This document shows positions 2 through 60,963 of a DNA stretch of 64,000 nt, one piece after another (the stretch's first letter is position 1; the number at the start of each line of letters is the position of its first letter). Source of the stretch: an uncultured Planctomycetaceae bacterium (GTDB lineage Bacteria; Planctomycetota; Phycisphaerae; SM23-33); NCBI GenBank assembly GCA_964385465.1, contig CAYLPJ010000003.1, positions 148,626-212,625 on the forward strand. Direction: 5' to 3'. Position numbers and translations under genes: made by a program. The notes under the pieces were generated by a model. The model was not told the origin of the DNA and made no database searches. It saw only the letters and a program-made list of their open reading frames with translations.

Positions 2-541
2 GCCGTCGCCGACGGGGAGAACCTCGACGCCCGGGAGGCCCTGGGGCTGGGCACCGACCTCGGCGGCTACGCGATCATGATCGGCGGGACCAACGGGGCG
101 CACCTCAACAGCTTCTCGCTGGTGGACCTGCTGCCGCACGGGCGAGCCTGTGCGGTGATGAACCCCTACTACGCCGTGCTGTTCGCCCCGGCCATTCCCG
201 AGCGGCTTCGGGCTGTGGGGGAGGTCTACCGCCGGGCCGGCTACGTCACCGCCGAGCTCGATGCCCTCAGACCCCGCGAACTGGGGATCGCCGTCGCCGA
301 GGGCATGGTCGCCATGTCCCGGGCCATCGGCTTCCCCGCCACGCTGGCGGAGATTGACGGCTTCTCCGACGAGCACGTCGACCGCTGCCTCCGCGCCGCC
401 AAGGACCCCAAGCTCGCCAGCAAGCTCGCCAACATGCCCGTCGCGCTGACGCCCGACAACGTCGACGAGATCATGGGCTCGGTGCTCGATGCGGCCGGGA
501 CCGGGGACTTCCGGAAGATCGCCGAGGTGGACGTACCGTGA
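2..541 (+). CDS. Iron-containing (group III) alcohol dehydrogenase, C-terminal fragment; the 5' end lies upstream of the window
   Basis: The reading frame is open from position 2 (AVADGENLDAREALGLGTDLGGYAIMIGGTNGAHL...). The motif '...LLPHGRACAVMNPYY...' resembles the Fe-ADH metal-site region. Stop is TGA at 539-541. Confidence 0.55.
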   Translation, partial: AVADGENLDAREALGLGTDLGGYAIMIGGTNGAHLNSFSLVDLLPHGRACAVMNPYYAVLFAPAIPERLRAVGEVYRRAGYVTAELDALRPRELGIAVAEGMVAMSRAIGFPATLAEIDGFSDEHVDRCLRAAKDPKLASKLANMPVALTPDNVDEIMGSVLDAAGTGDFRKIAEVDVP

Positions 542-5208: not shown

Positions 5209-5466
5209 TCATCCCCCCGCCAAGGCGGCTTCGATGTGATCGGCGGCGCGGGCGTCGAGGTCGCGGGCCTGGCCGATCAGCTCGATGGACCGGCGGCGGC
5301 CCTTCGGGTCCGCGAACCGGCGGGCGGCCACCTCGCCCCGGCCCGTGCCGCCTTCGTTCTTCCAGACGGCCCACATCAGTTCGTGCTCCTTGGCGTAGCA
5401 CGACGCGGCCGCGTGGAGGTTCGAGGCCTGGCAGGGCATGCACTCGGGCGTTTCGCGGACGAGCAA
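5209..5466 (-). CDS. Small hypothetical protein (85 aa, TTG start)
   Basis: This is the only frame in the 5154-5620 gap with protein-like composition (W, K, N, H, C: 'CMPCQASNLHAAASCYAKEHELMWAVWKNEGG'). The other overlapping frames are Arg/Pro-rich junk. The weak start codon lowers confidence. Confidence 0.3.
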   Translation of the reverse strand: MLVRETPECMPCQASNLHAAASCYAKEHELMWAVWKNEGGTGRGEVAARRFADPKGRRRSIELIGQARDLDARAADHIEAALAGG

Positions 5467-19700: not shown

Positions 19701-19930
19701 GGCTGGCGCATACGATCCTTTGTACGCGAATCTCACTTCTGCCCAGGTCAGTTGGACGACAACCGAGATACGAGGGCCACCTCGATCCCCGCTGCGCCGG
19801 CTCCTCCTTGGAGGAACCCTTCCAGCCAGCGCCGATCCAGCACGTCCGGCCGATCTCCATGGCGGTACCGCCCCGTTGCGGCGCGCAGGGTTTCGGTCTC
19901 GATGTACCCGGAGGTCTTCACGGACATAGA

Positions 19931-19936
19931 AGGAGG
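19931..19936 (+). promoter_or_regulatory. Shine-Dalgarno AGGAGG for the giant gene
   Basis: AGGAGG lies 7 nt upstream of the ATG at 19944. Confidence 0.5.
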
Positions 19937-19943
19937 CAGCATC

Positions 19944-22900
19944 ATGGATACGTCGAGCAGCCCGTCTTCGCCCGCTTCGCCCGACGGCTCTCCCGATTCC
20001 GTAGTCCAGGTGGTCACGGTCCCGACCGGAGGCAACCTGCCGTCGATCGAGCCCCTCGAGCCGAGACTCCTGCTGTCGGTCGGGGACGTCACGCTGATGC
20101 AGCAGATGGTCGAGACGCTCGACGCGGCCGGAGAGCACGCCGACCGGCTGCGCTCGGACTTCCTCCGCGGCGCCGATCCGGTGGTCACGTCCGAGACGCT
20201 GCCCGGCACAAACGCCACGCTCGACGAGCTGACGGGGCTGTCGGACTACATGAACGTGGGGACGTACGTGCGGCACTACGTGCACCCGGTGGCTCATCCC
20301 GACGAGGACCTGCCCGGCGGCGACACGCTGCCCGTCGGCCCCGAGGAAGACCCGAGCATCGAGGGCCTGGCCGACTTTCTCGAGGCCAACTGGTTCGGCT
20401 CGCTGTTCGGCGGCGCCCTGGCCGGGACCGAGCTGGACGTCTCCTCCACCACATCCGACCCCGTCACCGACGCGACCATCAGCTTCGCCACCGACCCCGG
20501 CGGGGAGACTTTCACCGCCAGCGTGCCGATCGGCATCAGCGAGGACGTCGCGGGGATCAGCCCGGCCTTCACCGACGTACTGGCTACGTTCACCGTCGAG
20601 TTCGCCTTCTCGTTGACCGTGGACTGGGCCGACGCCGAGCCGGAGTTCTCCTACTCCGTCGACACGCTCGCCGTCGACTTCTTCGCCGTCGATGCCACGC
20701 CGGTAGTCCCCTTCCGGGTCGGGGACCTCGCCGGTTCGGCCGGGCACCCCCAGGAGATCCCGGGCCTGATTACAGCCGGCGTCTACGTGGACGCGCCGCT
20801 GGACACGGTGGCCGGGGAATTCGTTGCCGACTTCGACCCCACCGGCGACCCGGTCAGCTCGATCAGCATGGACTTGCCTGTCCACGCCGTCCTGGCCGGG
20901 CAGGACGTCACGCAAGGCGCCGACGCGCGGGTCATGCTCCAGGGGGACTACTTCGTCGACCAGGGGCGAGGCACCACGCCGGCGACGTTCACCACCCAGA
21001 ACATGGAGAATGTCTCGGACTTCTCCGACGTCACGCTCGACGGGCTCCGCCAGACGCTGGAGTCCCTCCGCGACGACTGGCTTGCCGGCGTGACCTCGAC
21101 GGACGCCTTCAACGTCGAGATCCCCTTCCTGGACTCGACGCTCGCGCAGACCGTCGACTTCGGCACGGCGTTCGACGCCGCCGTGCTGGGGGAGCTCGAC
21201 TTCGACTCGCTCGAAACGCTCCAGGACTTCGAGGCCGAGGCCAGCCGCCTCGGCCTTTTTGCTGACGGGGAATCGCTGAGCTACGATCCCGCCACGCAGA
21301 CGGTCACGCTGCCGCTGGACTTCGCCGTGGACCTCCACGAGCTGGACCTTCGCGGGCTGGACGAACTGGGGCTGACCGACGCCGAGACGCTCGTCGCCGA
21401 GGGGCTCATCCAGATCGACGACCTCGTCGACCCCGACGACCTCCTCGACGAGGGCACGCTGACGCTCAGCGAGCTGATCGACGTCGGCGTGCTGTCGTCG
21501 GCGGACGTGGCCGACTGGGAGGGCATGGACCTCGACGCCGTCGCCGCGGCGGGGCTGATCGGCCCGCGCGGTCTCGACCAGGCCGGGCTCACCGGTCCGG
21601 ACGTGGACCTCGACGAGCTGATGGTCGCCGAGCTGGTCACGCTGGCCGACCTCGTCGAGGCCGACTACGTTACGATCGGCTCGATCGCCTCGCAGCTCGG
21701 GTTCATCAAGGAGGCGAACCTGCTGGCCTCCAACCTGGCCGACTTCGGCTTCGACCTGCTGAGCTTGAGCACCACCACCGACATCGTCGAGGTCGAGGAC
21801 GTCCTCGGCAGCGGCCTGACCGACCTGGAGGAGCTCTTCGACGAGGCCCTGCTCGGTCTCGGCGACCTGGCCGTGGAATCGCTGCCCGTCGATGAGGTCA
21901 TCGCCGCCGGCGTCGCGTCCCTGCACGACCTCGTCGACCAGGGGCTGCTCGTCGCCGACGACCTGCTCGACTCCGTCGTCTTGGCCGTCACCGACATCGT
22001 CGATCAGACCACCGTCACGCTGGTGGACCTCTTCGATCACTCGCTGGTGGGCATCGAGGATTTCGCCTCCGACACCGCCGTGGACCTCGTCGATGTTCTC
22101 GACGAGGGCCTGACCACGCTCCGCAGGCTCGTGGATACCGGGCTGGTCGTCGTGGACAGCTTCCCCGACTTGGACCTCGATCCGGCCGACCTGCTGAACG
22201 AAGGGCTTGTCACGCAGTTCCAGCTCGATTTCAACGAGCTGGTCGAGTCCGGAACGGTCTCGCTCCACCGGCTGGTCAACGAAGAGATCGTCCCGCTGCT
22301 GGACCTCGTGGACGCCGGGCTCGTCGTGGCCGGAGACATCGCGGCGGCGACCGCCTCGCTGTCGGACATCCTGGCCGAGAACCTGTTCGCTGCCCGCGAC
22401 CTGCTGGTCGCCGAGCTGGTGGACGCCGCCGCCCTGGTCCGCGACACGCTGGACGTCCACGATCTCCTGGACAGCGGGGCCGCCCAGTTGGCCGAGCTCG
22501 TCAACGCCGGATTGATCGACGCGTCGGAGTTCCTCGCCGACCAGCTCGACATCCGCGAGCTGATCGGCACGCCGCTGGCGGACCTAGGCGACCTTGCGCG
22601 GGAGAACCTGCTCGAACCGGCGGACGTCGTGCTGGACGCGTGGAAGGAGTCGGAGATCGCCTCCAAGGCCTCCGACCTGCTCTCGGACATCCAGACCAAC
22701 GGGCTGGTCGGGCCCGGGGCGATCATCGACCTAGACCAGCTCGTCACCAACAGCCCCATCCAGCTTGAGCACCTGGTCTACTTCCAGTTGATCTCCCACG
22801 CCGATCTACCGGACCTCGGCACGGTGCCCCGCGGGGACCTGCTGGACGCCGGCATCATCGACGGCAGCATGCTCGAGCGCAACGGGCCCGCCGAGGTCGT

Positions 22901-25900
22901 GGACGCCGGCCTGCTGACGCTCGGCGACCTGGTGGACCTTTCCGAACTCGAACGGGGCGACCTCGCCGACCTGGCGCCGGTGGACCTGGACCTGTTCGGC
23001 TTCGACGCCGCCACCATCGAGGACCTGGACACCGGCGGATTCATCGATCACAGCGACGCCGTATCGATCACCGACCTGGCCGCCCACACGTCGCTGACGA
23101 TCCAGCGGCTGCGCCGCCTGGGGCTGCTTACCGACGGCGACCTCTCCGACGACCTCGGCAACGTGCTGCTGGACGACGTGCTCGTCCAGGGCTTCGTCGA
23201 CCGCGACGACCTGCTGGCCTCCGGCGTCGTCGAGAATGCCAAGCTCGACCCCTACATCACGCAGGATGCGCAGGGCAGGGACGTCGTGCCCGTCGTGACC
23301 CTCACCAGCGTCGGCCTGGCGACCCTGGCCGAGCTCGCCGAGGCCGGGCTTCTGGACCTGACCGACCTGGACGCCACGCTGCTGGGCCTGACGACGGTCG
23401 GCGAGCACGACGTGCTGGCCTCGGGGCTGGTCTCCCCGCGGGCGCTGGACGACAACGGTCTGCTCCAGACCGCTGGCGGGCCCAACGACCGCTCCGTCAA
23501 CGTCGAGGACCTCCTGAAGCTCGAACTGGTCTCCCTGGCAGAGGCCTTCGAGGCCGGGTGGGTCCACATCGCCCACGTGCCCGGGGTCGACATTGCCCTG
23601 GACGGGCTGCTGGCCTCGGACGTCGTCGGCGAGAACGCCCTGGCCGACGAGGGGCTGACCGACGCCGACGTGCCGATCGAGGCCCTCGTCTCGGCCGGGC
23701 TCGCCGACGCCGAGAGCCTCGTGGTCGCCGGGCTGATCCGCCAGAGCGAGCTGTGGGACGCCAGCGCCGTTTCCCTCCGGCGGCTGATCGACGCCGGCCT
23801 GGTGGATACCTCGGACCTCGCCTCCGGCGGCGTGGTGGACCTGGAGGACCTGCTCGAAGCCAACGTCTTGGACCAGAAGTACGTCGACGAGAACGACCTG
23901 GCCGAGACCGTCGCCGGCGAGGAAGACCACATCCTGCTGGAGACCCTCCTGGCCGACGGGAACCTGACCTTCGAGAACCTGGTCACCAGCGGGGCCATCA
24001 CGAGGGACGACTTCGTCAACAAGGCCTTCAACCAGTTCGCACTCGAGGCAACGCTCCTGGAAGGCGAGCTGCTGTTCGACGCCGGCGAGTTCGATGACGT
24101 GGTTCACTTCGGCACGGTCCCGCTGGACACCCTGCTGGACTCGATCCTCTTCGTCACCACGCTGACCGACTACATCGGCCTGGAGTTTGTCGACCATTTC
24201 GACTTCAACAACGTCTCGCTGACCACCGCGAACATCGAGGCGGAGTTCGGCGTGGACGTCGACGCCGCCTTCGAGCCGACCGTCGCCCTGTACGACCTCA
24301 TCGACGAGGACATCCCCGGCGTCTCGCTGACCACACTGGTCATGGCCGACTTCGTCGCCCGCTCCGACCTGATCGACGAGTCCATGCCGCTGGACATCGT
24401 CGAGCTCGAGGCCTCGCCGCTGTTCGAGGAGGGCGACCTGAACAACTTCATCAGCAGGTTCGACGTCTACCTCTACGACGTGATGGAGGACCACTTCGTC
24501 GGCGACCTCGTCCGCGCAGGCCTGGTGGATGCCAACGACCTGATCATCCGCAACTTCGCGGACCTGGCCGACTTCGTCGAAGAAAGGCTGCTCGGCAAGC
24601 AGGACTTCCAGGACGTGGACATCCCCGCCGCGGACCTGACCTCCGCCGGTGTGGCGACCTCGGTGGCCCTGACCGACCGCGGGCTGATCGATGCCGGCAA
24701 CGTCTCGCTGCTGAGCCTGGTCAACACCGACCTGACCGAACTGCCCATCCTCATCGAGCAGGGACTGGTGGACTCCGATGACCTCGCCGCGCACGTCCTC
24801 GCCCGCGAGACCGAGACCGTCCTCAACAGCAACGTCATCGACCAGGCCCTGCTCGACGCCGCCGGCGTGATCACCGGCGCCGAGAACGATCAGGTCACTC
24901 TCAACGGGCCGACCAGCCTGCTCAGCGAGGACCTCGCGGGCATCTACCACCTGGCCCGGACCGGCGTGATCGCCCCGTCCTACCTCGACCCGGCCGCGAC
25001 GGTCGACGCCGACGATCTGCTCTCCACCACGCTGGTCTCCGATGGCGAGCTCTTCGACGCCGGTACGGTGGAACTGCTCACGCCGGGCGAGCTGTTCGCC
25101 GCCGGGCTGGTCTCCCCGGGGGACCTGGGCGTCACCGAGATCAGCCTCAACGCCCTCGACCGGGTCAATGCGATGGACCTGGACGACCTCAGCGACCCCG
25201 ATCTGCTGATTGCCCTGGGCCTGGCGACGGCCGATCGGATCGACGGCGTCGGCAGCGTGGACGTCGCCGAGATCACCGCCGCCGGGCTGACCACCGAGGC
25301 GGACCTGCTGGCTGCCGGGCTGCTCGGTACGCACGTGGACCTGGCCGCCCTGCTCGATTCCGGCCTCGTCACGGCCGAGCAGTTGCTCGACGAGGGGCTC
25401 GACGACCGTAGCGGGCGTGTGCCCCTGGAAGACCTGGTCGACTCCCCCCTGACGACGCTGACCGACCTCCAGACCGCCGGCCTCGTGCCCGCGAGCATTC
25501 CCATCGCCGACCTGGTCGACTCCGGCGAGGTCGCCCTGGCGGACCTGCTGGAAGACGGCGTGGACAAGGCCGCCCTGGTCGCCTCGGCGCTGGGCATCAG
25601 CGAGCAGGACCTCGTCGACGCCGGGCTGTTCGACCGCGGCGTGAACATCGCCGACCTGGTGGCGACGGACCTGGCTACCGCGGAGGACTTGTCGCTCTTC
25701 GGGCTGCTTCCCACGGTGGTCGATCCGGAGGATATGATCCTGTTGAACCTGGTCACCGGCGAGCAGCTCGTCGACGCCGGCCTGATCTCTCAGGCGATCC
25801 TGGACACCGAGGCCTTCGTCCCGGTGCTGCTGACCGACGTGCTCGAGGCGCTGCGGGACGGCGGCGACCCGAACTCCCACCTTGTCACCGTCGCCGACCT

Positions 25901-28900
25901 GGCGATGAACGGCTTCTTCACCGACGACATCGCGCGCGGCGACCTGACCGGCTCGGGCGTGGTCACCGGGGGTGAGCTGGACGACGCCGGCCTGACGGGC
26001 GACCCGATCAATCCCCGCGACCTGCTGATCGCCGGGCTGGTTGCCGGCACCGAGCTCGCCGCCGCCGGGCTGCTGACGCTGACGGTCTCCAAGGACGACA
26101 TCACGAGCCCGGGCTTCGCCGCCGTCGCCGGGGAGGCGGTCACCGAGGCCGACCTCGTGGACGCCGACCTCCTTCGCGGGCGGGTCGATCCGGACGGTAT
26201 CGTCGCCGCCGGCCTGGCCACGCAGGGCCAGCTCGACAGCGAGGGCCTGGCCGCCGAGCCGATCATCCCCCGCGCGGACCTCGATGACCTGCCGCGCGTG
26301 GACGTCGACGCCCTGGACCTCGCCCCCGTGCCGCTGGCCAAGCTGCTGGCCGAGGGCATCGTCGACGAGAACGACCACGTGGACCTCGATGCCGTGCTCG
26401 ACACCGTGCCGACCGGCGAGAACGCCCCGCTGCTCAGCGCCGCCGACCTGGCCCGGCTGGGGCTGATCACGCCCCGCGACCTCAACGGCCACGATCCAAA
26501 CGTCCTGCTGCTCCACGATCAGCCGATCGACCTGAGCGGCGACTACGGCCTGGACCTCGTCGGCCTGGTGACCGACGCAACCGCCGACCTGCGGGCGACG
26601 GCGAGCGGGTCGTTCGACCTGGTCGCCGACGCCGACGGGCCCGCCGGCGGCGGGACGCTCACGTGGACCGTGGACGACGCCGAGCTGACCGCCGAGGTCG
26701 GTTTCGACGTCCGCGACATCGACGCGACCGGGCGGCTGGGCTTCATCGGGGTGACGCTGGCCGACGTCGCCGGCCTCGAGAGCCTGATCCACCTGGACCT
26801 GACGCAGACGGGCGTACTGGACGCCGACGGCAGCCTCGGGACGGACACGGACCGCTCGTTCGCCGCCGGCGAGGTCGCCGCCGGCGATCACGACGACAAA
26901 TGGGTCACCGACACCACCGGCACGGCGGAGGCGACGCTGCGCGGGGTCAAGGTCAACACCGGCCTCGGCGGCGTCCCGGTCGCCCACGGCGCGGAGATCG
27001 TGCTGAGCGTCGAGGACCTGACGCGCGACAAGGACCATGCCGACTACCTCTCCCTGGAGCTGCGCAACCTGCCGGGCATCTTCTCCATCCACGAGCTGTT
27101 GCGGCTGGAGGACCTGCTGACGACGCTGCTCCGCGCCCGCGACTACGTCCGCACGGCCATGGACCAGGTTCCGTTCTTCGTCACCGACCCGGAGTCGCCG
27201 GTCTACGAGTTGCTGGACAGCGTGAAGCTGCCGATTCTCGATCGCTCGCCGGTCGAGCTGCTGACGGTGATCGGGGACATCGACGAGGCGATCACCGACG
27301 TCGAGCGGTTCCTCCGCGATCCCGAGAACGACATCCAGCGGCTCGTCGGCGTGTTGATGAACGCCCTGGGCCTGGACATCGAGGCCGACAGCGACGTCTT
27401 CAGCGTGGCCATGGAGGGCAACGTGCTGAAGGCGAGCCTGAGCATCGACCAGGACGTCAGCGAGACCGTGCCCTTCGATTTCGACTTCTCGGCCCTCGCC
27501 GACGCGTTCGGCGGCAGCCTGCCGAGCGAACTGGACGGGCTGGGTGAGCTGGTCAGCCTCGACGCCGAGGGCGAACTGACGTTCACCGGCTTCGCCGAGC
27601 TGGACGTCCAGGCCGGCGTGGACCTCGGCCCTCGCGCCGAGGACCAGCCGGTGGACAAGTTCCTCTACGACTGGGACGACGGCCTCCAGGCAGGCACGCG
27701 CGTGGCCGCGGGGTTCAAGGTGCTCGGGCAGAACCTCGACCTGGGCTTCGAGGTTTTCGACTCCATCGGCCTGTCCACCTTCAACGGCGCCCAATTCGAC
27801 CTCGACGAGAGCGGGTCGCTCGACGCGACCACCTACAACGCCGACGTGACCATCGACGCCGACGCCGACGTGACCACCAACCCCGAGCTCGGCGACCCGA
27901 ACGACCGCTCGGACTACGTGGCCGTCACGTTCGAGCTGGACCAGCAGCCGGGCACCGGCGTGGACGACGACGGGCTGTATCGCTTCGACGAGACGCTGCT
28001 GGGCGATAACGTGGTCTTCGGCGGCGTCGACGGCGGGTTCGAGGTGCTCCTGCCGCTTGAGATGGACATCTTCGGCGCGACGACGCAGTTCGAGGGCCTG
28101 GGCACCTGGCCGCTGTGGATCCGCACGAACCCGGTCTACGAAAGCGGAACGAATGCGGGGCTGGAGCAGGTCTTCCGCCACGTCTTCAACACCAGCCCGG
28201 GCCCCGACGAGCCCGTGCTCATCGACGCGCCGGACATCACCGGCCAGCTCGGCAACCTGGCCGACAGCGTCATCCGCACGCTGCTGGAGGAGCTCGCCGA
28301 CCTGGTCGGGGACCTCAAGCAGGAGCTGCTCGACGCCGGCCTGCTGGACCTCGAGATCCCTGGCACGAGCACGACGGTGGACGACCTCTTCGGGGCCGGC
28401 AACGACAACGGCCTGCCCGGCGTGCCCACCGCGACGGGAGCCGAGGCGCTGCTGGATATCGACACGTACGTCTTCGAGTACCTCGATACGGTGCAGTGGA
28501 CGGGCTCCAATTCGGTGCAGGACGGCTCGGTCACGCCGGGGGACATCTGGAACGGCCTGGCGACGTTCCTGACCAACCACTGGGTCCCGACCCTGCCGGG
28601 GATCGGCGTGGGCGTCGGCGGGAACTTCATCACGGCCAACGTCTCGGGCGACCAGTTGAGCCTCGACGTCGACGGCAGCTACAGCTTCAACGAGACGGTG
28701 GACGCCGACTTCGGCGAGCACCTCGGCGGGCTGAGCCTGACGATGAATACGCTTGGGATGGACCTCGCCCTGTCGACGCTTCTGAAGTTCGGGTTCGACG
28801 TGGACCTGGGGACCAACGACGTGGAGTTCGACTTCGAGGAGTTCGGTTTCGACGCGTCGTTCGACACCACCACGCTGGACCTCGGGCTGACCTACGAGGG

Positions 28901-31900
28901 CACGGGGCTGACGACGGACGGCGAGGGCGAGGTGGACCTGGACGTCGGCGGGTCGATCCTGCACGACGGGGCGAGTTTCAGCTTCGACCCGGAGAAGAAC
29001 AGCGACGGCGTGTCCGTCCACACCAACCAGGTGGACATCGACCTGCCGCTCGAGCTGACAGGCGGCGGCGGGGTGGACGTCGCGACAGTGACCTTCGCCG
29101 ATTCGGACTTCTACGACGGCCAGTTGGACCCCGGCTTCAGCGCGGACCTGCGAGACGTGAACGTCGTGCTGACCGAGCTGGCCTACCAGGCCCTGGACCT
29201 GCTGGGCGAGGAGATCGAGACGCTCCGGGGCACGCTGATCACGCAGTACGACTCCGAAGGCAACGCGGTCACCTCCGGCAGCTTCCTCGACGAGCAACTG
29301 CCCGGGGTGGACGTCTCGCTGGACCGCATGCTGGGGATCGACTCGATCCTGTCGGTCGGCAGCTACATCCGCCACTACCTCCGGCCCCACCTGGACGAGA
29401 CGGGCTTCGAGCGCGACGAGGCGATCCCCTTCGGCCAGAACGGCGAGGACTACTACGGCGGCGGCGTGCCCACCATGGGCGGGCTGTTCGACTACCTCGA
29501 GAGCACCTGGCTGGAGGGCCTTGGCGGCCAGGCCGGCGGACTGACGTGGGAACTGGACGGCACCGATGCCATCGAGATCACCTACACCGCCAGCGCCCCG
29601 TTCAGCCGGTCCATCGGCATCGATCTCGGCGCCGGGGCCGAGGACATCGGCCTGAGCATCGACGGCGACGCGACCTTCGACATCGACTTCACCCAGGACA
29701 TCGAGGCCGTCATGCGCTTCGACTGGGGAAGCAGCACGGCGGACTTCGAGCTGGATCACTACGACTTCACGGCCGCGGCGTCGGTGGATGACCTCGTCGT
29801 CGGCGCCTCGCTGGGCCCGCTGGATGTGGGCATCGGCAAGTCGGGCGAGGAAGAGGGCGCGATGTCCGTCCGGCTGGGCGGACGGCTGTCCTTCGACAAT
29901 CCCAGCGAGCTGGCCCGGGGCGACCTGCTGTTCACCGCCGGCGACCTGGCGTTCCGGCTGTTCCACGAGGTTGGCGGCCTGCCCAACAACGCCGTCGCCG
30001 CCGACTTGCCCATCTACGCCGAGTTGGGCGGGCAGGCGCTGGGCGGCACGGCGACGTCGAGGCCGCGAGTCGGGCTGGAGGGTGCCCTGTTCCCCACGGC
30101 CGGGGCGCCGGAGCTGGCGTTCACGACCGAGAACCTCGACGAGTTGCTGAACTTCAGCGACTTCAACGTCGGCAGCCTGATCGCGATGCTCCAGGGCACG
30201 CTGAACTGGCTGGACGGGCTGACCGGCTCGGACTTCCTGAGCGCCGAGATCCCCTTCGTGGGGAAGACGCTCGGGGACGTGCTGGACTTCGCCACCACGT
30301 TCAACGACCGCGTGCTGTCGAAGATCGACCCGGCACAGATCGGCACGATACAGGACTTCATCCGCGAGTTCAGCGAGGCCGGCATCCTGCCCGAGGGCCT
30401 GGACGTAACGTTCGACCCCGCCAGCGGCGTGCTCCGCCTGCCCAGCCTGTTCGACTTCAACCTCCACGAGTTCGGCCTGCGGAACCTCCAGAACCTCGGC
30501 GAGGCGAGCTTCCAGAAGCTCGTGGACATCGGCGCGATCGATCCGACCGTCGAGATGTCCAAGCTCACGCTGGTCAACAACCTGCTGGACATGCCGCTGG
30601 TGGGCCTACGCGGGCTGGTGGAATGGGGCCTGGTGGACGGCGACTCCTTCGGCTCGACCACGCTCGCCGTGGCGGACCTCGAGGGCCTCGGCCTGGCCGA
30701 TCCCGGCGACCTCGCCGGCCCGAACATCTCGCTGACGGCGCTGCTGGCAAGTCCGGCTGTGGACCTCCGCCTCGTGGACCTGGTCGACTACGACCTGCTG
30801 TCCCTGTCGGACCTGGCGGCCGGGCAGTGGATCGACTACGACGACCTCATCGACTCCCGCCTGATCACCGCCAGCCAGCTCATCGAGCTGGGCGTGACGC
30901 TGCGCGACCGCAACGACGAGATCACCGAGGACCCGGCCCTGGCGATCGAGGTCAGCCTGGACTCGCTGACATCGCTGAATGCCTTCGATCTCGCCGGGCT
31001 GCTGGACATGGGTTTCGTGGCCGTCGACGAGTTCGATCCGACGACGGCAATTTCCGAGGCCGCCCTGGAGTCCGCCGAGCTCATCGCCGAGGACGCCCTG
31101 GACGGCACGGGGTTGGTCAGCAGCGGGGACATCACGCTGGAGGACCTGCTCAGCGTGGACTCCGGCGTCAGCGTGGCCGTGGCGGACCTGATCGCCGAGG
31201 GCCTGCTGGGTGTCGGCGACCTGGACCTGGGCAACGTGGAGATCGGCAACCTGGGCGTCGAGGGCTTCGACCTCTACGAGCTGGTGGACCTGGGCCTGCT
31301 GACCCAGACCGAGATCACCACGTTCGTCCACGACGAGTTCGGGCTGATGGACGTCCCGCTGGACCTCGGGCTGGACCTCGGCGACGTGCTGGAGCTGGGC
31401 ACCACCGCCACGGTGGACCTCAAGGCGACTGTCGAGGCCGGCTTCGACTGGCTGCTGGACCTCGACGGCCCGACCGGCGAGGAGGGCCTGACGCTGCTGA
31501 TCGACAACGCCCACGTCTCCGGCGAGGCGTGGCTGGACGTCGAGGACCTGGAGTTCTTCGCCGAGCTCGGATTCGTCGGGCTCACCGCGGGCGGGCCGGG
31601 CACGGGCAGCGGCGTGAACCTCTACGCCAAGGCCGAGGCCGCCCTCGACGAGGACGGCGACCTCGCCACAACCGACGACCGCCAGTTCTCGTTCACCGAT
31701 CTGCTGGGCGGGGCGCTGTTCGACGAGCTGGCCTTCGACTTCTCCGGCTACGGGCAGGCGGCGCTGAAGTCCATCGAACTGGCCCAGCCCATCCCCGGCA
31801 TCAGCGACTCGGCCCTGGCGGGCAAGGAGCTGTCGATCACCATCCCGGACATCACCGACTGGGAACAGGTCGACGTGCTCAATCAGGGCGAGTTGACACC

Positions 31901-34900
31901 CTCGGAGCTGGACAGCGAGAGGGACCGCCTCACCGGCCTCGGGCACGTGGTCGTCGTCGTGCCGGACTTCGGCGACGTCTTCAACGTCAGCGACCTCGAC
32001 TTCGCCAGCATCATCCAGGCCATCCGCTCGGCCCTGGACTACCTCGACGACGCTCTCGAGGGCACGAGCTTCTACAACACCACCATCCCCGTCATCAACC
32101 GCTCCATCGACGACGTGATGGACTTCGTCGACGATCTCGCGGCGAAGGTCGAAGAGGCGGCGACGAACCCCGCGGCCGTCATCCAGGACGTCGAGCTGCT
32201 GATCGAGGACGCCCTGGGCATCGACGACGACAACTTCACCGACGGGATGGGCGGCTTCAGCACGACGTACGACGAGACGCTCTACCCGGACCCGGTGGAC
32301 GCGCGGGAGCAGACCTTCGCGTTGTGGCTGGACGGCGAGACGCTGAACATGCACCTGGAGTGGGAGGCCGCGTTCTCCGACGAGTTCGCCTTCTCGCTGG
32401 ACCTGGCGCAGATGAAGGCCCTGGCCGACGGTGCCGGCAACGACTACAGCGTGCTGGAAGGGCTCAACCAGTTCGTCGACGCCGGCGGGCAGGTCTCCTT
32501 CGAGGCCTACGCCACGGCGGTCATCGAGTTGGGCATCGACTTCAGCGAGATCGACACCCAGGGCCTCGGCGGCATCGACTTCTTCCTGCTCGATCACGAC
32601 GAGCAGGGGCCCGGCTCGGCCGACGACATCGGCACGCGGGTCGAGCTCGGCGCCACGGTCATCGCCGAGGACCTCGAGCTGTCCATCCAGCCGTTCGACA
32701 TCGGCATCACCGGCGGCCTGATCCTGCTGGACGCCGACCAGAACGCCGCCACGGACGACGCGGCCACGCTGACGTTCTCGCTGGACCAGCAGAGCGGCGC
32801 CGTCGCCGACGACGGGCGGTTCCGCATCGGCGAGGAGGACATCCTCGACAACCTGGACTTCTCGCTGGCGGGCAACTTCATCGTCGACCTGCCTGTGGAG
32901 ATCCTCGGCATCGGGCTGAACCCGAACCTGACGATCCAGACCAATTCCGCCGACTACGGCAGCGATGCGCTGATGCAACTGTTCCATCACATCGCCGGCT
33001 CGTCGGAAGCCGGGCCGCACGACCCGATCACCTTCACCTTCCCGGACATCACCGGCGCGCTGGGCGGGGACTTCGGCCTGCTGGGCATCCTCAACGATCC
33101 CAGCTACATTCTCGACGGCGTGGACCTCGCACTCGGCGGCGTCCAGGACATCCTCGGCTCCAGCTTCGCCTCCGATATCCCGCTGATCGGCGACAAACTC
33201 GACGACGCGGCCACGTTCATCCGCGACATGCGCCTGGGCTTCCTGGCCGACCTCCGCGAGCGGCTGGACGGCCCCGGCAAGGCGATCGAGTTCCTCCGCG
33301 ACGGCATGTGGGACGTGTTCGGACCGGCAGGGCTGGACATCATCCTGGACCGCGACGGTGACGGGGCGATCGAGGTGGAGGACATCCACGTCGGCTGGTA
33401 TGACGTCGACGGCAACCTGGTCAAGGAGTGGGTCGTCGGCGAGCAGGTGCCCGAGGCGGGCTTCGTCTACGACGAGGACGGCGACTACGTCAGCGACTCG
33501 GGCAGCCCGCCGGCCGGCGGGTTCACCGCCTCGGCCGACGCCGACGCGATCCAGTTCGACCTGACCCTCGGCGGGGTGGCCTTCGGCACGGGCGTGGACA
33601 TCCCGCTGGACATCGATCTGCCCGGCTTCGGCCTGGAGATCGACGGCGGCTTCGCCGTGCAGCTCGACTGGAGCTTCGACTTCGGCATGGGCCTGAGCCT
33701 GGAAGACGGGTTCTACCTGTCCACCAACGACAAGTCCGCCCCGGCCGACCCGGAACTGGAAGTCGAGATCGGCGCGTTCCTGGACGGCAAGCCGCTGGAC
33801 AACGCGCAGATCACCCCGTTCGTCGCCGGCGGCAAGCTGTTGTTCTTCCAGGTGACCGCCACGGATACCGACCGCGAGCCGGGCACGACGGGTTTCCAGC
33901 CCAGCGGCGTCTTCGGCTTCCTCGAGATCGACGCCATGGGCGACGCCTCCACCGGGCGCATGACGCTCAACCACATGCTGTCCACGCCGCTGGACGATCT
34001 CTTCGCCGTGGACCTGGGCGTCGACGCCGGAATGAATCTCGAGTTGAGGCTCGAACTGGCCGGGGTCGAGGGCCTGCCCAGCCTCGCCGCCGACTTCGTG
34101 GTCGACTGGGGTTGGAGCCTCGCCGGCGGGGCCGAGGACCCCGAAATCGCCCTGGAGAACCTCCGCATCGACGTCGGGCCGCTCGTCTCCGACGTGCTCA
34201 AGCCGATCAGCGAGGCCATCGCCGACGTCCTCGAACCCATCGAGCCGGTCATCGACGTGCTGCTGACCCCCATCCCCGGCCTGGACGTTTTGCTCGACGA
34301 TCCCAACCTGCTGGGGCTGATCAACTTCGTCGCCGGGCTGATGGGCTACGGCGAGGTCCCGCCGCAGTTCTTCTATGCCGCCCAGGACATGCTGGAGCTC
34401 GTCCAGCAGGTCGATGCCATGCTCGGCACGGACGGCGAGATCCTCCTCGGCGACGTGCTGGGGCTCGGAACGGACAGCCCGTCGGCCAACCAGGCCGAGG
34501 GGTCCGTCCCCGGCGTGCTCCAGGACTTCCTGGACTCCGTCGCCAGCGACTCGATGGGCGGCGAGCTGATCGCCTCCGGCGCCTCCGGCGGGGCCGTCAA
34601 CGAGCAGCGCAGCGGCTTCGAGATCCTCTCCTACATCACCGACATCGGCAACTGGATGAACCTGCTGACCGGTGGGGACGCCACGCTGTTCACCTACGAG
34701 ATGCCCCTGCTGGGCTACGAGATGAGCTTCAACCAGACGATCGCCACCATCACCGCCGGGCCCGCGGTGATCAAGGTCTCGGCGGTGGGGGGCTTCAGCA
34801 TCACGGCGGACCTCGGCTTCGGGTACGACACGTACGGCATCCGCCGGGCGATCGAGACGGGCAACCCGTGGCTTGCGTTCGACGGGTTCTTCATCGCCGA

Positions 34901-37900
34901 CTACTCCCTGGGCGATGAGTTCGTGGAGAAGGACGAACTGACCTTCGGCGCCGAGATCGGGCTGGAGGCGGCGTTGTGGTTGGCGCTGATCGAGGCGGGC
35001 CTCGGCGGCGTGCTGGGCTTCACCACCGGCATCGACCTCCAGGACGTCAACGACGACGGCAAGATCCACTTCTCCGAACTCGACACGATGTGGAACTACA
35101 CCGGCAACGACGCGCCGGGCGGCCTGCTGAACCTCTTCAACCTCCACGGTGAGGCCTACGCCGAGGCGTATGTGTTCGTGGACGTCGGCATCTCCATCCC
35201 GTTCGTCGGCAAGATCATGAAGCGGGTCGTCGACTGGACCATCGTCGACATCACCCTCGCCGAGTGGGAGTACAACGCGCCCAAGGTCCAGCCCGTGCTG
35301 GCCAGTACCGACGGCGACACCCTCGTCCTGCACACCGGCAAGCGAGCCGGCGACCGCGAGTACCTCGACACCGAGGACGGCGGGGAGCACTTCACCCTCA
35401 CCGGCGACAGCTCGGCCATCGAGGTCGCCTACGGCGAGTGGTCCTTCACCTACGACGACACCACCTACACCAAGGTCATCGCGGACGGCGGCGCCGGCGA
35501 GGATGTCTTCGACGCCTCCGGGCTGACCGGGGTGGACGTCGAGTTCGACGGCGGCGAGGGAGACGACACGCTCACCGCCGGGACGGGCGCGGCCGTGCTG
35601 ATCGGCGGGCCCGGCGACGACCGCCTCCAGGCCGGTTCGGCGACGGGGACGATCACGCTGGACGGCGGCGAGGGCGACGATTTCCTGATCGGCGGCCCGG
35701 GCGTCAACGACCTGACCGGCGGGCCGGGCAACGACCGGCTCACCGGCGGCTCGGACGCCGACACGCTCGCCGGTGGGACCGGCAAGGACACCCTCAGCGG
35801 CGCCGCGGGGGCCGAAACGTACATCTTCGAGGCCGACTTCGGGCCCGACCGCTGGTCCGACTCCGCCGACGCCAGCGTCCTCGACCTCAGCGCCACCACC
35901 GAGAACCTTACCGTCGACATCAGCGCCACCGGAATCAAGATCGCCAGCGACGACGCCGAACTCCGCTTCGGCCGAAGCGAGATCAGCCAGATCATCCTCG
36001 GCACCGGAGACGACGTGCTCCGCATCCGCGACTGGCCGGCCGGAACGCTCCAGATCGAGGACACCGGCGGCTCGGCCACCTACAACTTCGAGTTGGGGCT
36101 CCAGAGCTCCAACAAGGCCGACGGCATCATCGACATCGTCGACAACGATGACGACCACGACGAGATCATCCTCGACAACCTTGTGGGCATGGACCCCGAC
36201 GACAACGTCTTCGACGCGCTGACGATCAACGACCACGAGCTCGTCAACGGCCGGGAGATTATCCGCTACACCGACGGCGTCGAGCAGATCAGCCTGCCGG
36301 TGGTCGAATCGGAGATCGACGACACGGGCGAGACGACGTTCCACATGCGGGACCTGGAGATCGTCTCGACGAACCCCGGCGGGGCGGTGCTGGGCGAGAC
36401 GGACCTGATCGTCGACGCCCGCAACCTGACGGTCTCGACGGACCTCGACGGCGACGGCTTCGTGTTCACCGTCGAGGAGGACGTGGTGCTGGACGGCTCG
36501 GTGCACGCCACCGGGGACATGGACATCGCCTCCGACACGATCGGCAGCAGCGCGGGCGTCGGGCGGGTGGATCACGCAATTGACGCCCACGACCTCGACT
36601 GGCACATCCGCGTCAGCGACGTTATTGCCAACGCCCGCATCAACGCGATCTTCGACGGCAAGCTGGATATTTACGCCGCCAACACGACCCCGGCGGACAT
36701 CATCCTCAACGTGGACATCACGTCCTCCTCGGGCGACACCACCGACGGCCAGGGCGGCGGGACCATGCGCCTGGTCGCCGAGGGCGTGCTGGATATGCAC
36801 AACGACATGCAGTTCCTCGGCGCCGGCGCGCACCTGATCCTCGCGGCCGACAACATCAACAACCACTTCTACGGCGGCTCGAACAAGATCCGCACGACGG
36901 TGGCGGGCCTGACGGTGCTCACGCGGGACGAGGGCGTGGTCTCCGGCAGCGAGATCGTCGTCGAGGAGACCGACAGCCTGGTCGTCCACGGGCTGGACCT
37001 CTCGGACGTCCCCTCGCAGAACCCCGTGGGGCTCAGCAGCGCCCACGGCATCATTCACGTGACGCTGGCGGGCACCGACGCGCGGCTGACCCTCGACACC
37101 GGCAGCATCATCACGCGCGACCCGGGCATGGACATCACGCTGTTCGCCGACGACTTCGACTTCATCCCCTCGCCGCTGGTTCGCGACACCACCACCGACC
37201 GGCCCCGCGGCGGCGTGATCGGCACGGGGCAGCTCACGCTGCGGGCGCCGAACGCCTCGACGTTCATCATGGGCACCGCGGCCGAGCACGAGCTGGGCAA
37301 GGACTGGACGGACCTCGCCGCGGACACGCCGGGCTACACGGCGTTCCCCGAGCACGTGGGCGGCAACTTCAGCGGCCCCGAGGGCGACAAGAGCTACGAC
37401 GAGGACGGGTCGATTTTCCAGGACACGGTGCACCTGTCCACGCGGGACCTGTCGGCGCTGGCGGACGGCTTCACGCTGATCACGATCGGCGACGACGTCG
37501 GCGACGCCAACCCGACGGCGGAGATGCGGTTCGGCGACGCGATGGACGCCGCGATCGTCAAGCACGACGGCTCGCCGCGCGACCGGGACAGCTCCTTCCG
37601 GGACGACGTGATCCTCAACGCCGCGAAGGTGTTCGTCGAGGGCGAGGTCGAGGCGCTCGCGCCGGGCGGCGACCCGCCGATCACGCTGGAGATGAACACC
37701 GACCGCCTCCAGATCAAGGACAAGAACATCCACAACCCGCTGGGCGGGACCGATTCGGGCATCACCGGCGACCTGCTGGAGCTCGACGGCATCCGCGACC
37801 GCATGATCGTCGACGGCTGGGTGCGGACCTGGGGCGACATCCGCGTGAACATCCAGGGCGACGGCGAGTCGTACGTCTCGCCGATGATGACCGACGTCAC

Positions 37901-40900
37901 CGACGACGACAAGCGGCTGAACAACTTCATCCAGGGCGTTCCCGGCACCATGGAGACGTTCGCCGACGGCGGGGTCATCGAGATCATCACCAAGAACTCC
38001 GTCGTGCTGGAGGGGCGTACCTTCGTCCAAGGCGAGGGCGCGCGGGTCACGATCAAGCCGGGCACCTTCTTCGAGCTCGTGCAGATCGCCGGGCAGATCA
38101 GCTCCGCCGATGCCGACAGCCTCATCGAGATCGAGGCCCCCGAGGCCGTCTACGTCAACGGCGAGGTCCTCGCCGGCGTCGAGTGGCAGGGCGGGGTGAA
38201 GGTCGTCACCGGCGAGGGCGCCGACGTGACCGTCAATACCCCGCACGAACTGCGGATCTTCGGGGCCATCACGTCCACGGACGTCATGGAACTGACCGGC
38301 GGCGCCGACCAGGACTGGAACGAGCGCGATCCGCAGGACGCCAGCATTCACCTGACCGGGCAGCTCACCTCGCTCGACGACAACCGCCTGCTGAAGCTCC
38401 AGGGCCCCGACGACGTCCTCGTCGAGGGCAGCATCTTCGTCCGCGGGCGAAACAGCGGCCTGCTCATCGACTCCGGTCAGCGCGTCAAGTTCGCCACCAG
38501 CTTCGTCGAGGTCGAGGACGGCATCGACATCTACGGGCGGGGTGAGTCCACCGACGTCGACACCGGAATCACGTCCAGTGTCTTCGTGGACGCCACGGCC
38601 GTCATCACCAGCTTCCAGAACGGCAGCAACATTCACATCGAGGGCGCCGGGGACGTGGACATCCTCGGCACGGTCCTGGCCGGCGGGGCGATCGGCCCGA
38701 CGGGCGTGACGTGGTCCGGCACGGACAGCGAGGCGGTCGTCACCGCCGGCGAGCAGGTGTACGTGGACAGCGGCATCCTCGCCAGCGACACGGTGACGGT
38801 CGTCGGCGGCCCGGCCGGCGAGGACGACGCCAGCCTCGACCCCGCCAACGACGGGCTGGCCCCGGCTGACCAGCGCCGCGTCAGCGTCGTGGTCACCACC
38901 GCCGGCGGCATGACCGCCGCGGGGCGCACCTCCGACGGCTCGGCCGGGCTCATCCGCATCTTCGGCGCCAGCGGCGTGGAGATGATGGGCCACCTCTACA
39001 GCGGCGCCACCAAGGGCCTGCTGTTCGACGGCGAGGGCAACCTCATCAAGGAGATCATCGACTGGGAAAGTTCCGTCGGCGGCGACGTGTCCATCGAGTC
39101 GCCCGGGCAGGTCTTCATCGGCGGTTGGGCCGAAAACCAGGCCACCGAGGTCGTCCTCGACAGCGACGTCACGCTGCATATCATCCTGGACCCCGACGGG
39201 TCCCCCACGCCCGGGAGCATCACTCTCGACGCCGACGACACGACGAACTTCACCCGCCTGCACGAGTTGCGGCAACTCGTCTCCGATGCCCTGACGGCCG
39301 AGTTCGGCGGGGACATCGACGTGCAGATCGAAAACGACCGCCTCGTGTTCGTGGCGGACCAGCCGTTCACCATGGAGTCCACCAGCACCAACGCCGACCT
39401 GCTCGGCCTCGGCGGCGGGGACCTGGAGGGCAACGAGGTCGTCCCCGACGCGGAGATCGCCGCCGACGTCGCCCCGCCGAGCATGGCCCTGAGCTCCGAC
39501 GCGACCCTCGTGCTCAACGACGGCGAAGGCGACGCGCTGGGCTCGATCACCGTGACCGCCGCCGAGACGGCCGGGTTCACGCAGCTCAGCGAGCTGATCG
39601 CCTTGTTGAATGACAAGCTCAACGACGCGGGGCTGACCGAGATGCTCGCCCGCGACGGCGGCGGGTTGCTGGCGCTGACCGGCGAGTTCGACTTCGAGAT
39701 CGACGAGACCTCCTCGAACGCCGACCTGCTGGGCTTCGACGCCGTCGCCGCCCCGGCCACCGTCGCCAGCGCGCGCGACGCCTCCACCTGGGAGGTTACC
39801 GCGGTGCACTCGCTGTTCGGCAGCGTGGTGGAGACCGGCGGCTACATCGCGGCCAGCGACACCATCTCGCTGTTCAACTGGGACACCGCCGAGCACCCGT
39901 ACATCGGCGGGGAGGTGGGCGTCCGCATCCAGGGCTCCAGCGAGTTGACCACCCACGAGGACGAGAGCCTCATCGAGGTGGACTCGAAGCTCGACGCCGA
40001 GATCGAGGGACACCTCATCGCCGGCGGCGAGGTCGAGACCATCCGCGACGCCGAGACCGGCGGGTTCATCGGCTCGAGGCTGATCGACTTCGGCACGGAT
40101 ACCGACGACACCGAGATCGACATCCAGGCCGAGCACCAGGTGCGGATCGGCACGACGCTGAAGGCCGGCGGGAGGATTCACGTCGTCGGCGGGGACGACC
40201 CCGTCGAGGGCGACCCGGGCGACCCGTTCAACTTCACCGGCTCCAGCGTCCTGATCTTCGGCTCGGCGAAGCTGGAGACCTGGGGCGAGAACAGCGCCAT
40301 CGACATCGAGGGCACCGGCGACATCAAGGTGCTCTCGCCCACGCACTTCCACGAGGTCGAGCCCGAGGAGTGGGCCAAGGGCCCGCGGGCGTTCCTCGTC
40401 GGCGAGGGCCAGTTTGCCCTCGGGGGCGTCCTGCCCGCCGACGTCACGCTCGACATGCGCCGCCGCGACGGGTTGGGCGGGTACCTCACCGAGTCGATCA
40501 CCCTCTCGGCCGGAGACTACGCCAACGATGCCCTGATCGTCACCTCCCTGGAAGCCGAGTTCGCCGCCAGTACGGACTTCACCGACGTGCAGGTGAGCAA
40601 CCCGGGCCGCTACCTGGTGCTGGATGCGCCGTACGACTTCGACATCGAAAGCACGTCGGTCAACCTCGACCTGCTGGGCCTTGCCAGCGTGCAGACGGCC
40701 CGGGTGGTCTATCCCGAGGCCCGGGTTGTCGGCGACGTGAACATCCCGACGACCGGTCGGCTGGTCGAGGATGTGGTGCTGGACCTGAGCATGGACGACG
40801 GCGTCGGCGGGACCATCGACGATACCGTCACCATCGCCGCGGCGGACACGACCGGCCATACCACGCAGGCCGAGCTGCTCACGACGATCAACACGGCCCT

Positions 40901-60869: not shown

Positions 60870-60963
60870 GCCGGCACGGATGCCCGGCCACTCCCCGCGA
60901 AGATACGGGCCTGCCGGGCTGCTACAATGAATGGTCCCCTTAGAGGAAGAGGAGGATGCAGAC

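Follow-up and report, generated by a model that had tools for sequence, protein, structure and literature searches.

The giant protein encoded in the window (the whole 64,000-nucleotide stretch of DNA that we analyzed) contains a tract of about 1,700 residues that we interpret as a tandem-repeat domain, folded but non-globular, of a family not described before. Our main reading, to which we assign a probability of roughly 55%, is that this tract represents a new solenoid repeat family and would serve as a rigid stalk or spacer of fixed length. The first-pass annotation had placed an acidic repeat tract of this size near the N-terminus of the encoded protein, and both its location and its approximate length were confirmed, with bounds that moved inward by about 90 nt at the start and by 4 nt at the end (Table 1). 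A second, shorter array of the same units, absent from that annotation, was found further downstream in the same protein; at this location, lag-11 autocorrelation climbed again (aa ~3450–3900), the coil HMM had four matches, and the cassette profile matched at aa 3569–3883. The non-repeat modules directly flanking tract 1 also recurred around tract 2 in a jackhmmer self-search, with the "pre" module partly present a third time at aa 4076–4151. The "pre" module was detected in all orthologues, and the "post" module was also found in orthologues.

Table 1. Coordinates of the giant gene and of the features within it, in positions of the window.
Feature	Residues (aa)	Position	Strand	Remark
Giant ORF, harbours the tract	13,705 in total	19752..60869	+	Longest ORF
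N-terminal motif LEPRLLLS	102–109	20055..20078	+	Read directly in the sequence
"Pre" module	421–542	21012..21377	+	Conserved, non-repeat, directly upstream of tract 1
Tract 1	543–2255 (1,713)	21378..26516	+	Array of degenerate 11-residue units; bounds set by conserved flanking modules
Modelled cassette	700–950	21849..22601	+	Part of tract 1 collinear with the ~230-aa FG-GAP cassette
"Post" module	2256–2480	26517..27191	+	Conserved, non-repeat, directly downstream of tract 1
"Pre" module, second copy	3466–3585	30147..30506	+	
Tract 2	3586–3866 (281)	30507..31349	+	11-residue units as in tract 1, in a shorter array
"Post" module, second copy	3867–4044	31350..31883	+	

The giant ORF had a GC3 of 94% in its frame and protein-level homologues in MAGs of 49–65% GC. 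Translation probably starts not at the first TTG but further downstream, and an ATG lies at 19902. The N-terminal LEPRLLLS motif had counterparts in homologues (LEPRILLS, LEDRRLLS, and LEPRLMLS), always preceded by a basic stretch. Outside the tract, the protein had an RTX-like segment, four FG-GAP matches, and weak Big_5 and dockerin-like matches under Pfam cut-offs, while HemolysinCabind matched only at aa ~5300. From this context, and from the prevailing view that the giant genes of planctomycetes code for surface proteins (PMC5177795, PMC12673574), we infer that the protein is secreted or exposed at the cell surface.

The repeat unit comprised 11 residues with the consensus G-L-V-[T/D]-x-x-D-L-[L/V]-D-A and a hydrophobic spacing of 5+6. 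Periodicity was strongly supported against 200 composition-matched shuffles, with an autocorrelation peak at lag 11 for both LIVF residues (z = 10.4) and residue identity (z = 9.6), and a weaker super-period of 32–33 residues was visible as a secondary identity peak at lag 32 (z = 4.3). The motif core previously read by eye, [AS]GL[IVL] followed by DL, was real, but the period of 13–15 residues proposed with it was wrong. An 11-mer PSSM recovered 78 units in comparison to 8.5 ± 2.7 in shuffles, at a modal spacing of exactly 11. In total, tract 1 had about 80 clear units, interspersed with many degenerate units of 10, 11, 21, or 22 aa, and in a dynamic-programming parse clear units covered only about half of the tract. 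Units were gathered into coils of about 26–33 aa; a coil HMM detected 26 coils in the tract and 0–1 in shuffles, at an irregular spacing of 22–34 aa, and non-periodic inserts of 40–60 aa were also present. Given that no DNA-level tandem repeats were found in the tract, we infer from the sequence that the array is old and currently neither expanding nor contracting.

The bias toward acidic residues and the scarcity of K, W, and C described in the first-pass annotation were confirmed as values for the tract (aa 513–2257: D 14.0, L 18.4, A 11.4, V 9.9, G 8.0, E 6.3, R 2.6, K 0.6, W 0.2, and C 0%), but both are properties of the whole protein. The remainder of the protein had 11.4% D, 7.0% E, 1.1% K, and 0.9% W, only three Cys were present in its entire length, and net charge per residue was −0.171 in the tract (−292 in total) versus −0.137 elsewhere. 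Leu, at 10.4% outside the tract, was the only tract-specific compositional excess.

Relatives of the tract were rare: a set of 1.84 billion representatives yielded 96 clusters, most of them from MAGs of Planctomycetota. In eight orthologues sharing 35–57% identity, the length of tract 1 between its flanking modules was 1,657–1,813 aa, and tract 2 measured 281–291 aa in four orthologues. Tract alignments over 1,712 residues were nearly gap-free at 43–57% identity between genomes of 49–70% GC; the alignment to orthologue L001 had only seven gaps in 1,712 positions. Individual units, and not merely the repeat pattern, were conserved. Across orthologues, the hydrophobic class was kept at unit positions 2, 3, 8, and 9 in 77–91% of cells, while Asp positions had 38–46% identity and the solvent-facing positions 4, 6, 10, and 11 were the most variable (37–40%). 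Repeat regions seldom keep a near-constant length between distant lineages, as this 1,700-residue array does, which suggests that physical length is the selected property.

A second family of giant proteins, all metagenomic (P0021, P0023, P0024, P0025, P0028, P0029, P0032, and P0034), had a cassette of ~230 aa inserted in one FG-GAP blade, between VVGNxGFDL and FGGxTxxYxxxGxGxF. These cassettes are truly homologous to aa 700–950 of the window protein, aligning over ~240 residues nearly without gaps at 29–35% identity, and their invariant or nearly invariant columns comprised eight Leu/Phe and a single Asp (D6). While the FG-GAP family carries a single block, cassette-like sequence in the window protein is spread along 1,713 aa and bordered by different modules. 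The presence of a collinear cassette inside an FG-GAP blade indicates that the repeat behaves as a self-contained module.

AlphaFold2 predicted an ordered, regular repeat solenoid for aa 700–950 (pLDDT 89.0, pTM 0.74; 87.6–89.0 across five models), a prediction obtained from a shallow alignment of 18 sequences with a method that can be over-confident on repeats. The predicted cassette had about seven coils, each with a strand, two 6-residue helices, and a 3-residue helix, and its coil of 32–33 residues agreed with the lag-32 autocorrelation peak. Helix positions also agreed with those of an independent low-confidence model of aa 520–1000 built from four sequences, the first model obtained (mean pLDDT 45.8). 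In both models the chain was broken into 6-residue helices every 11 residues, and model helix content was roughly 45%. The regular repeat is thus accompanied by a predicted periodic secondary structure, while the three-dimensional stacking of coils into a solenoid rests on the AlphaFold2 model. These results favor the solenoid or extended stalk that had been suggested from sequence. Of the three outcomes named in the first-pass annotation as refuting it, none was observed, as periodicity was strong, order was predicted, and the tract matched no described repeat family.

The unit could be understood as follows. Thr, Asp, or Ser at position 4 would cap an amphipathic helix of six residues (positions 5–10), whose L5, L8, and [LV]9 would point inward and D7 and D10 toward solvent, and which would be terminated by the position-1 Gly of the next unit, with L2-V3 as a connecting hydrophobic stretch, short and extended. 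One alpha/beta-solenoid coil would consist of three of these units (32–33 residues) and comprise, besides a 3-residue strand that opens every coil, two helices of six residues and one of three. About 50 coils could then build a long rod, its core made of Leu and Val and its strongly negative surface (net −292) covered with Asp. Such a rod would act as a rigid spacer or stalk of fixed length, setting the distance between the flanking modules or holding them a set distance off the cell. The main effect of the abundant Asp would be to stabilize helices of such short length, by N-capping and by way of the helix dipole; it would also keep the rod soluble and self-repelling, and would form no specific Ca2+ sites. 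However, the half-parsed units, the 26 irregularly spaced coils, and the inserts of 40–60 aa indicate that the entire 1,713 aa may not be one continuous rod. Moreover, if the tract were looped out like the cassettes of the FG-GAP family, its ends would lie close together, which fits a straight rod poorly. A bolder version, which we consider tentative and somewhat unlikely, would make the tract the first member of a new class of alpha/beta-solenoid folds, with three 11-residue helix-turn sub-repeats per coil. It would serve as a length-determining ruler or rigid stalk of ~50 coils, kept at its size by strong selection in the giant surface proteins of planctomycetes, and the same module could also be placed as a protruding finger in beta-propeller loops.

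The regularly spaced Asp could instead coordinate Ca2+ and thereby stiffen the rod, in the manner of RTX beta-rolls, dockerins, and the extender repeats of RTX adhesins. This possibility, raised in the first-pass annotation, is consistent with a tract of 14% Asp, 6% Glu, and a net charge of −292, with the Ca2+-binding modules elsewhere in the protein (RTX-like, FG-GAP, and weakly dockerin-like), and with an Asp-lined surface (positions 4, 7, and 10) that would draw divalent cations non-specifically. We nonetheless consider it unlikely. GGxGxD, sought for the RTX beta-roll nonapeptide GGxGxDxUx, occurred 0 times in the tract and seven times elsewhere in the protein, with the HemolysinCabind match also outside the tract. 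Similarly, Dx[DN]x[DN]G, sought for the 12-residue DxDxDG-type loops with invariant Asp/Asn of EF-hands, dockerins, and FG-GAP, occurred 0 times in the tract and 10 times elsewhere, and the tract matched no Ca2+-binding Pfam family even at E ≤ 10. Asp positions were among the least conserved of the unit, well below Leu/Val positions, only one of the near-invariant cassette columns was an Asp, Lys replaces Asp in related 11-mer arrays (e.g., GIKTSDDLIKL in P0083), and acidity is protein-wide. Alternatively, the solenoid could itself be the functional surface and not a passive spacer, with a face that adheres to or binds ligands such as cationic minerals, metals, or host polymers. Conservation of each unit between orthologues and the protrusion of the cassette from an FG-GAP propeller, a typical ligand-binding scaffold, would fit such a role, but the solvent-facing positions are the most variable ones and the tract has no known binding motif or partner, making this reading quite improbable.

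Three further explanations concern the fold itself. A continuous alpha-helical hendecad coiled coil or fibrous rod (11 residues in three turns) would share the exact period of 11, and similar 11-residue arrays occur in phage tape-measure proteins; profile searches weakly retrieved NIxRNQ-type 11-mer arrays (P0046 and P0065) and matched 4uos, a designed untwisted helical bundle (E = 0.31). However, Gly occupied position 1 in 67% of PSSM units, Pro was frequent at positions 4–5, hydrophobic residues fell at positions 2, 3, 8, and 9 instead of the a/d/e/h core of a continuous helix, and both AlphaFold2 models interrupted the helix in every unit, so that we regard this fold as very unlikely. Still less credible is an intrinsically disordered acidic low-complexity linker with merely compositional periodicity: while the biased composition, the lack of domain matches, and the low pLDDT of the first AlphaFold2 run point in this direction, disordered acidic regions are poor in hydrophobic residues, weakly conserved by position, and low in order, and the tract had 36% LIVFM (47.5% LIVFMAW), a periodicity of z ≈ 10 against composition-preserving shuffles, nearly gap-free orthologue alignments over its full length, and a pLDDT of up to 89 with a deeper alignment. 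Finally, a chain of helix-hairpin-helix (HhH)-like motifs binding a nucleic acid or polysaccharide could be proposed from the core L-x-x-A-G-[LIV]-x-[TSD]-x-x-D-L, which resembles non-canonical HhH hairpins in its local pattern h-x-x-A-G-h-x-[T/S/D]-x-x-D-L (helix, Gly turn, capped helix). P0083, a Lys-rich array matching the tract profile, matched the HhH Pfam families DNA_pol_lambd_f, TfoX_C, Cdd1, and DUF4332, and 3 of the 18 cassette members had sub-threshold DNA_pol_lambd_f matches. In contrast, the window tract had no HhH family match at E ≤ 10 and lacked the h-G-h-G hairpin of that class (G[LIV]G was observed twice versus 3.6 ± 1.8 expected), its 6-residue helices are chained every 11 residues, and its strong acidity (−0.17 per residue) is incompatible with polyanion binding, which leaves this reading scarcely tenable.

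Giant genes make up a large share of planctomycete genomes, yet almost none of what they encode is annotated (PMC5177795, PMC12673574). One recurring building block of such proteins is now defined by its unit, coil, boundaries, homologues, and a profile-ready alignment. Searches of Pfam, NCBIfam, and PDB sequences returned no family match for the tract, in line with the first-pass impression that no named repeat has this consensus. Given that the confident structure prediction had no PDB neighbour, a new solenoid architecture may join the catalogue of repeat proteins, and its very short capped helices could be of interest for repeat-protein design.

Among known repeats, pentapeptide beta-helices (A[D/N]LXX) differ in that the tract alternates between spacings of 5 and 6, is predicted to be helix-rich, and has no corresponding Pfam match; the slightly raised count of A[DN]L..x[DN][LF] (4 versus 0.2) follows from the unit consensus. 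Similar to leucine-rich repeats (LRR), the tract is Leu-rich, has a conserved 11-residue segment, and has predicted coils of a short strand and helical segments, but here the 11-mer is the whole unit, with three units per coil; the signature LxxLxLxx[N/C]xL occurred 0 times and no LRR Pfam family matched at E ≤ 10. The 33-residue alpha-repeats (ankyrin, TALE, and mTERF-like three-helix repeats) have, like the tract, two or three short helices in a coil of ~33 residues, and to the eye VSLHDLVNSG in the tract superficially resembles ankyrin TPLHLAAxxG; in contrast to these families, for which no Pfam match was found, the coil has an internal three-fold symmetry of 11 residues. In its plausible role, the tract compares with the extenders of giant bacterial adhesins, such as the BIg-repeat extender of the Marinomonas ice-binding RTX adhesin and the helical-bundle rod of Staphylococcus Ebh: very long tandem repeats in a giant, acidic, and probably secreted protein with RTX/FG-GAP-type modules, which could project other modules over a distance. 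However, its fold and sequence are unrelated, with no Ig or helical-bundle family match, its units are old and diverged and show no repetition at the DNA level, and its length, rather than varying between strains, is conserved between distant orthologues.

The acidic, Asp/Leu-rich tract that the first-pass annotation had placed at nt 21290–26520 is real, and the limits set by its conserved flanking modules agree closely with that placement (see the table of features). The composition of aa 513–2257 of the giant protein is as had been claimed, rich in D (14.0%), L (18.4%), A (11.4%), V (9.9%), G (8.0%) and E (6.3%), with K (0.6%), W (0.2%) and C (0%) nearly absent. However, acidity and the scarcity of K, W and C are common to the whole protein (D 11.4%, E 7.0% and K 1.1% outside the tract; net charge per residue −0.171 in the tract vs −0.137 outside; only three Cys in 13,705 aa), and the tract itself stands apart only in its excess of Leu. 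The unit of 13–15 residues that had been proposed gave way to one of 11 in the periodicity analysis that the same annotation had suggested: autocorrelations of LIVF and of residue identity both peaked at lag 11 (z = 10.4 and 9.6), well above 200 shuffles, with side peaks at lags 5, 6, 16, 22, 27 and 32–33 that correspond to a 5+6 hydrophobic split. Sliding analysis limited the lag-11 signal to aa ~450–2250 and a shorter second region at aa ~3450–3900.

An iterated 11-mer PSSM converged on the consensus G-L-V-[T/D]-[L/A]-x-D-L-[L/V]-D-A and found 78 units in the tract vs 8.5 ± 2.7 in shuffled sequences, 30 of the 77 spacings being exactly 11. Given that a 22-mer repeat HMM (hmmsearch) under-counted, with 34 units, the PSSM was combined with a dynamic-programming parse, which resolved 80 units clearly and left numerous spacers of 10, 11, 21 or 22 residues, themselves visibly degenerate units, as well as a few non-periodic inserts of 40–60 residues each; about half of the tract was too degenerate for parsing. 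At the DNA level, TRF detected no tandem repeats in the tract, and a repeat search returned only in-frame families of 60–80% identity, indicating that the array is old.

Searching the protein against itself revealed that the tract lies between a conserved pre module (aa 421–542) and a conserved post module (aa 2256–2480), and that this arrangement recurs at aa 3466–4044 around a shorter tract with the same repeat. After a third, partial pre module, a connection of only ~25 residues stands where the first two modules hold a tract. The short connection hints at loop expansion as the origin of the tracts. That the array is an enlarged excursion inside a module used repeatedly is suggested, though not proven.

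Coordinates of features in the window and in the giant protein
Feature	Nucleotides	Amino acids	Strand	Description
Giant ORF	19752..60869	13,705 aa	+	Single ORF, encloses the tract
LEPRLLLS motif	20055–20078	102–109		N-terminal
Tract 1	21378–26516	543–2255 (1,713 aa)	+	Limits set by pre and post modules
Tract 2	30507–31349	3586–3866 (281 aa)	+	Same 11-residue repeat, between second pre and post copies
Third pre module	31977–32204	4076–4151		Partial
RTX-like segment	~35439–35987	~5230–5412	+	Gly/Asp-rich nonapeptide-type repeats
27-nt tandem repeat	35663–35762			In the RTX-like segment
DUF3659 match	46206–46343	8819–8864	+	Pfam
21-nt tandem repeat	46440–46532			4.4 copies
C-terminal region	~59049–60260		+	Four FG-GAP repeats, then weak Big_5 and dockerin-type matches
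Small ORF	60931–61563	210 aa	+	Immediately 3′ of the giant gene

The gene that carries these tracts is ~41 kb long, exceeding the largest gene reported in Fuerstia marisgermanicae (36,239 bp; PMC5177795). That the ORF is spurious and lies on the wrong strand could be ruled out by a GC3 of 94% in the + frame, as expected of a real gene in a genome of 70% GC, together with conserved protein homologues; since these homologues occur in genomes with 49–65% GC, the long ORFs on the antisense strand are explained by base composition. Among its neighbors are genes for two sulfatases, for an AcrB/HlyD efflux pair and for pyruvate dehydrogenase E1/E2, and the named proteins nearest to E1 belong to Planctomycetota and Pirellulales MAGs (61–73% identity), which makes a planctomycete origin of the window very probable. 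The C-terminal end of the protein encoded by the small downstream ORF matches PEP-CTERM weakly (E 0.0012), short of the curated threshold.

Most of the giant protein had no Pfam or NCBIfam match. The RTX-like segment matched Pfam HemolysinCabind and, weakly, NCBIfam RTX/serralysin models; the 21-nt repeat adjoining the DUF3659 match encodes a 7-residue ‘IDEDGNL’ unit; aa 10037–10129 gave a weak C-type lectin match; and the final ~200 residues are Ala/Arg/Pro-rich, unlike the remainder. The N-terminal LEPRLLLS follows a basic stretch and reappears as LEPRILLS, LEDRRLLS, LEPRLMLS or LEDRRLLA in homologues (P0001, P0003, L001, L005, L006 and L007), possibly representing a lineage-specific secretion or processing signal; our literature search returned no paper on an LExRxLLS motif and none containing ‘LEDRRLL’.

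Structure prediction pointed to a regular fold. AlphaFold2 on aa 520–1000 with four sequences had low confidence (pLDDT 45.8), yet placed 6-residue helices every 11 residues; a Foldseek search with this model was uninformative. With a shallow alignment of 18 sequences, the prediction for aa 700–950 reached a pLDDT of 89.0 and a pTM of 0.74 (87.6–89.0 across five models), and its helix positions agreed with those of the four-sequence prediction. In this model, secondary structure recurs every 32–33 residues as a 3-residue strand, 6-residue helix, 5-residue link, 6-residue helix, 5-residue link and 3-residue helix, so that each coil comprises three 11-mers, which accounts for the autocorrelation signal at lags 32–33. 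A coil HMM found coils only in the two tracts of the protein, 26 in tract 1 and four in tract 2 (0–1 in shuffled tracts), irregularly spaced at 22–34 residues. Mapping the consensus onto the model, Gly1 would be a helix C-cap, L2-V3 an extended hydrophobic link and the T, D or S at position 4 a helix N-cap, with D7 in the first helical turn; L5, L8 and the hydrophobic residue at position 9 would form the buried face, and D7 and D10 the exposed one.

Known families offered no identity for this repeat. Pfam searches of the whole protein and of tract pieces (E ≤ 10) gave nothing meaningful for the tract, NCBIfam models run on the first 5,000 aa did not match it, and Pfam on all 18 aligned cassette members returned only short sub-threshold motif matches (ribosomal L15, AF1548-like_C, DNA_pol_lambd_f). 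The tract as a single sequence had no match among PDB sequences; for the 18-sequence profile the best was a designed helical bundle (E 0.31), with nothing below 0.3, and Foldseek of the aa 700–950 model against 350,542 chains gave a best E of 3.1 at TM 0.13. Given that LRR, RTX and EF-hand/dockerin signature motifs were all absent from the tract, these identities were rejected, as were HhH, ankyrin/TALE/mTERF, pentapeptide repeats, a hendecad coiled coil and a disordered linker. A literature search found no paper on the 11-residue repeat. The results support a folded, solenoid-type repeat domain; by these comparisons the repeat family is new, and the predicted solenoid architecture is probably new as well. 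Of the two ideas in the first-pass annotation, a solenoid or stalk therefore stands, while specific Ca2+ binding is not supported in view of the missing RTX and EF-hand/dockerin motifs. Non-specific binding of cations by the tract surface, with a net charge of −292, is conceivable.

A word-indexed homology search returned only four homologues (36–43% identity), probably as words from the repeat filled up its list of candidates, and an exhaustive HMMER search was used instead. Among 1.84 billion cluster representatives, it found 96 proteins at E ≤ 1e-3 (23 at E ≤ 1e-30), indicating that the family is rare; screening 185,579 species genomes gave seven loci, all in MAGs (four labeled as Planctomycetota lineages and one each labeled Gammaproteobacteria, Desulfobacterales and ‘uncultured bacterium’). 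The labels of L002 (Gammaproteobacteria), L006 (Desulfobacterales) and the protein P0002 (Actinomycetia) reflect either binning errors or horizontal spread, all other assignable relatives being Planctomycetota. Orthologues matched the whole tract nearly gap-free, the closest (L001) with 57% identity and seven gaps over 1,712 positions, and the others with 35–46% identity and 31–167 gaps, the highest number belonging to a truncated sequence (P0001). The pre-to-post distance of tract 1 was 1,657–1,813 aa in eight orthologues, and tract 2 measured 281–291 aa in four; in the paralogue-like P0004 the distance was 450 aa. Hydrophobic class was kept at unit positions 2, 3, 8 and 9 in 77–91% of comparisons between orthologues, while the Asp-rich positions 4, 7 and 10 were 38–46% identical.

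A second family of giant proteins (P0021, P0023, P0024, P0025, P0028, P0029, P0032 and P0034) carries a collinear cassette of ~230 aa with 29–35% identity to aa 700–950, inserted into a single FG-GAP blade with ‘VVGNxGFDL’ before it and ‘FGGxTxxYxxxGxGxF’ after it, which indicates that the repeat is a portable module. One carrier, P0024 (4,602 aa), is encoded on contig L009 amid genes for other giant proteins (1,655, 1,706 and >4,112 aa). Weaker profile hits were other 11-residue arrays. Near-perfect tandem arrays of this period, with a G-h-x-[T/D]-x-x-D-h-like pattern and in some cases Lys-rich, occurred in many unrelated proteins (P0083, P0055, P0056, P0050, P0052, P0058, P0060 and P0074), including the Lys-rich ‘GIKTSDDLIKL’ array of P0083, which scores against HhH Pfam families, and that of P0050, which is accompanied by lysozyme-like and M23 peptidase domains. 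The ‘NIxRNQ’-type arrays of P0046 and P0065 resemble phage tape-measure proteins. There may be a wider class of such helix-turn arrays with 11-residue units.

Given the conserved length of the tract among orthologues, a hydrophobic core that is conserved while the exposed positions vary, the repeated use of the cassette as a module inserted on a propeller, and the presence in the same protein of the RTX-like segment and FG-GAP repeats, along with weak Big_5 and dockerin-like matches that fall below the cut-offs, we infer that the tract serves as a rigid stalk or spacer of fixed length in a giant surface protein. As such, it would fall within a known class, the repeat rods of giant bacterial surface proteins.
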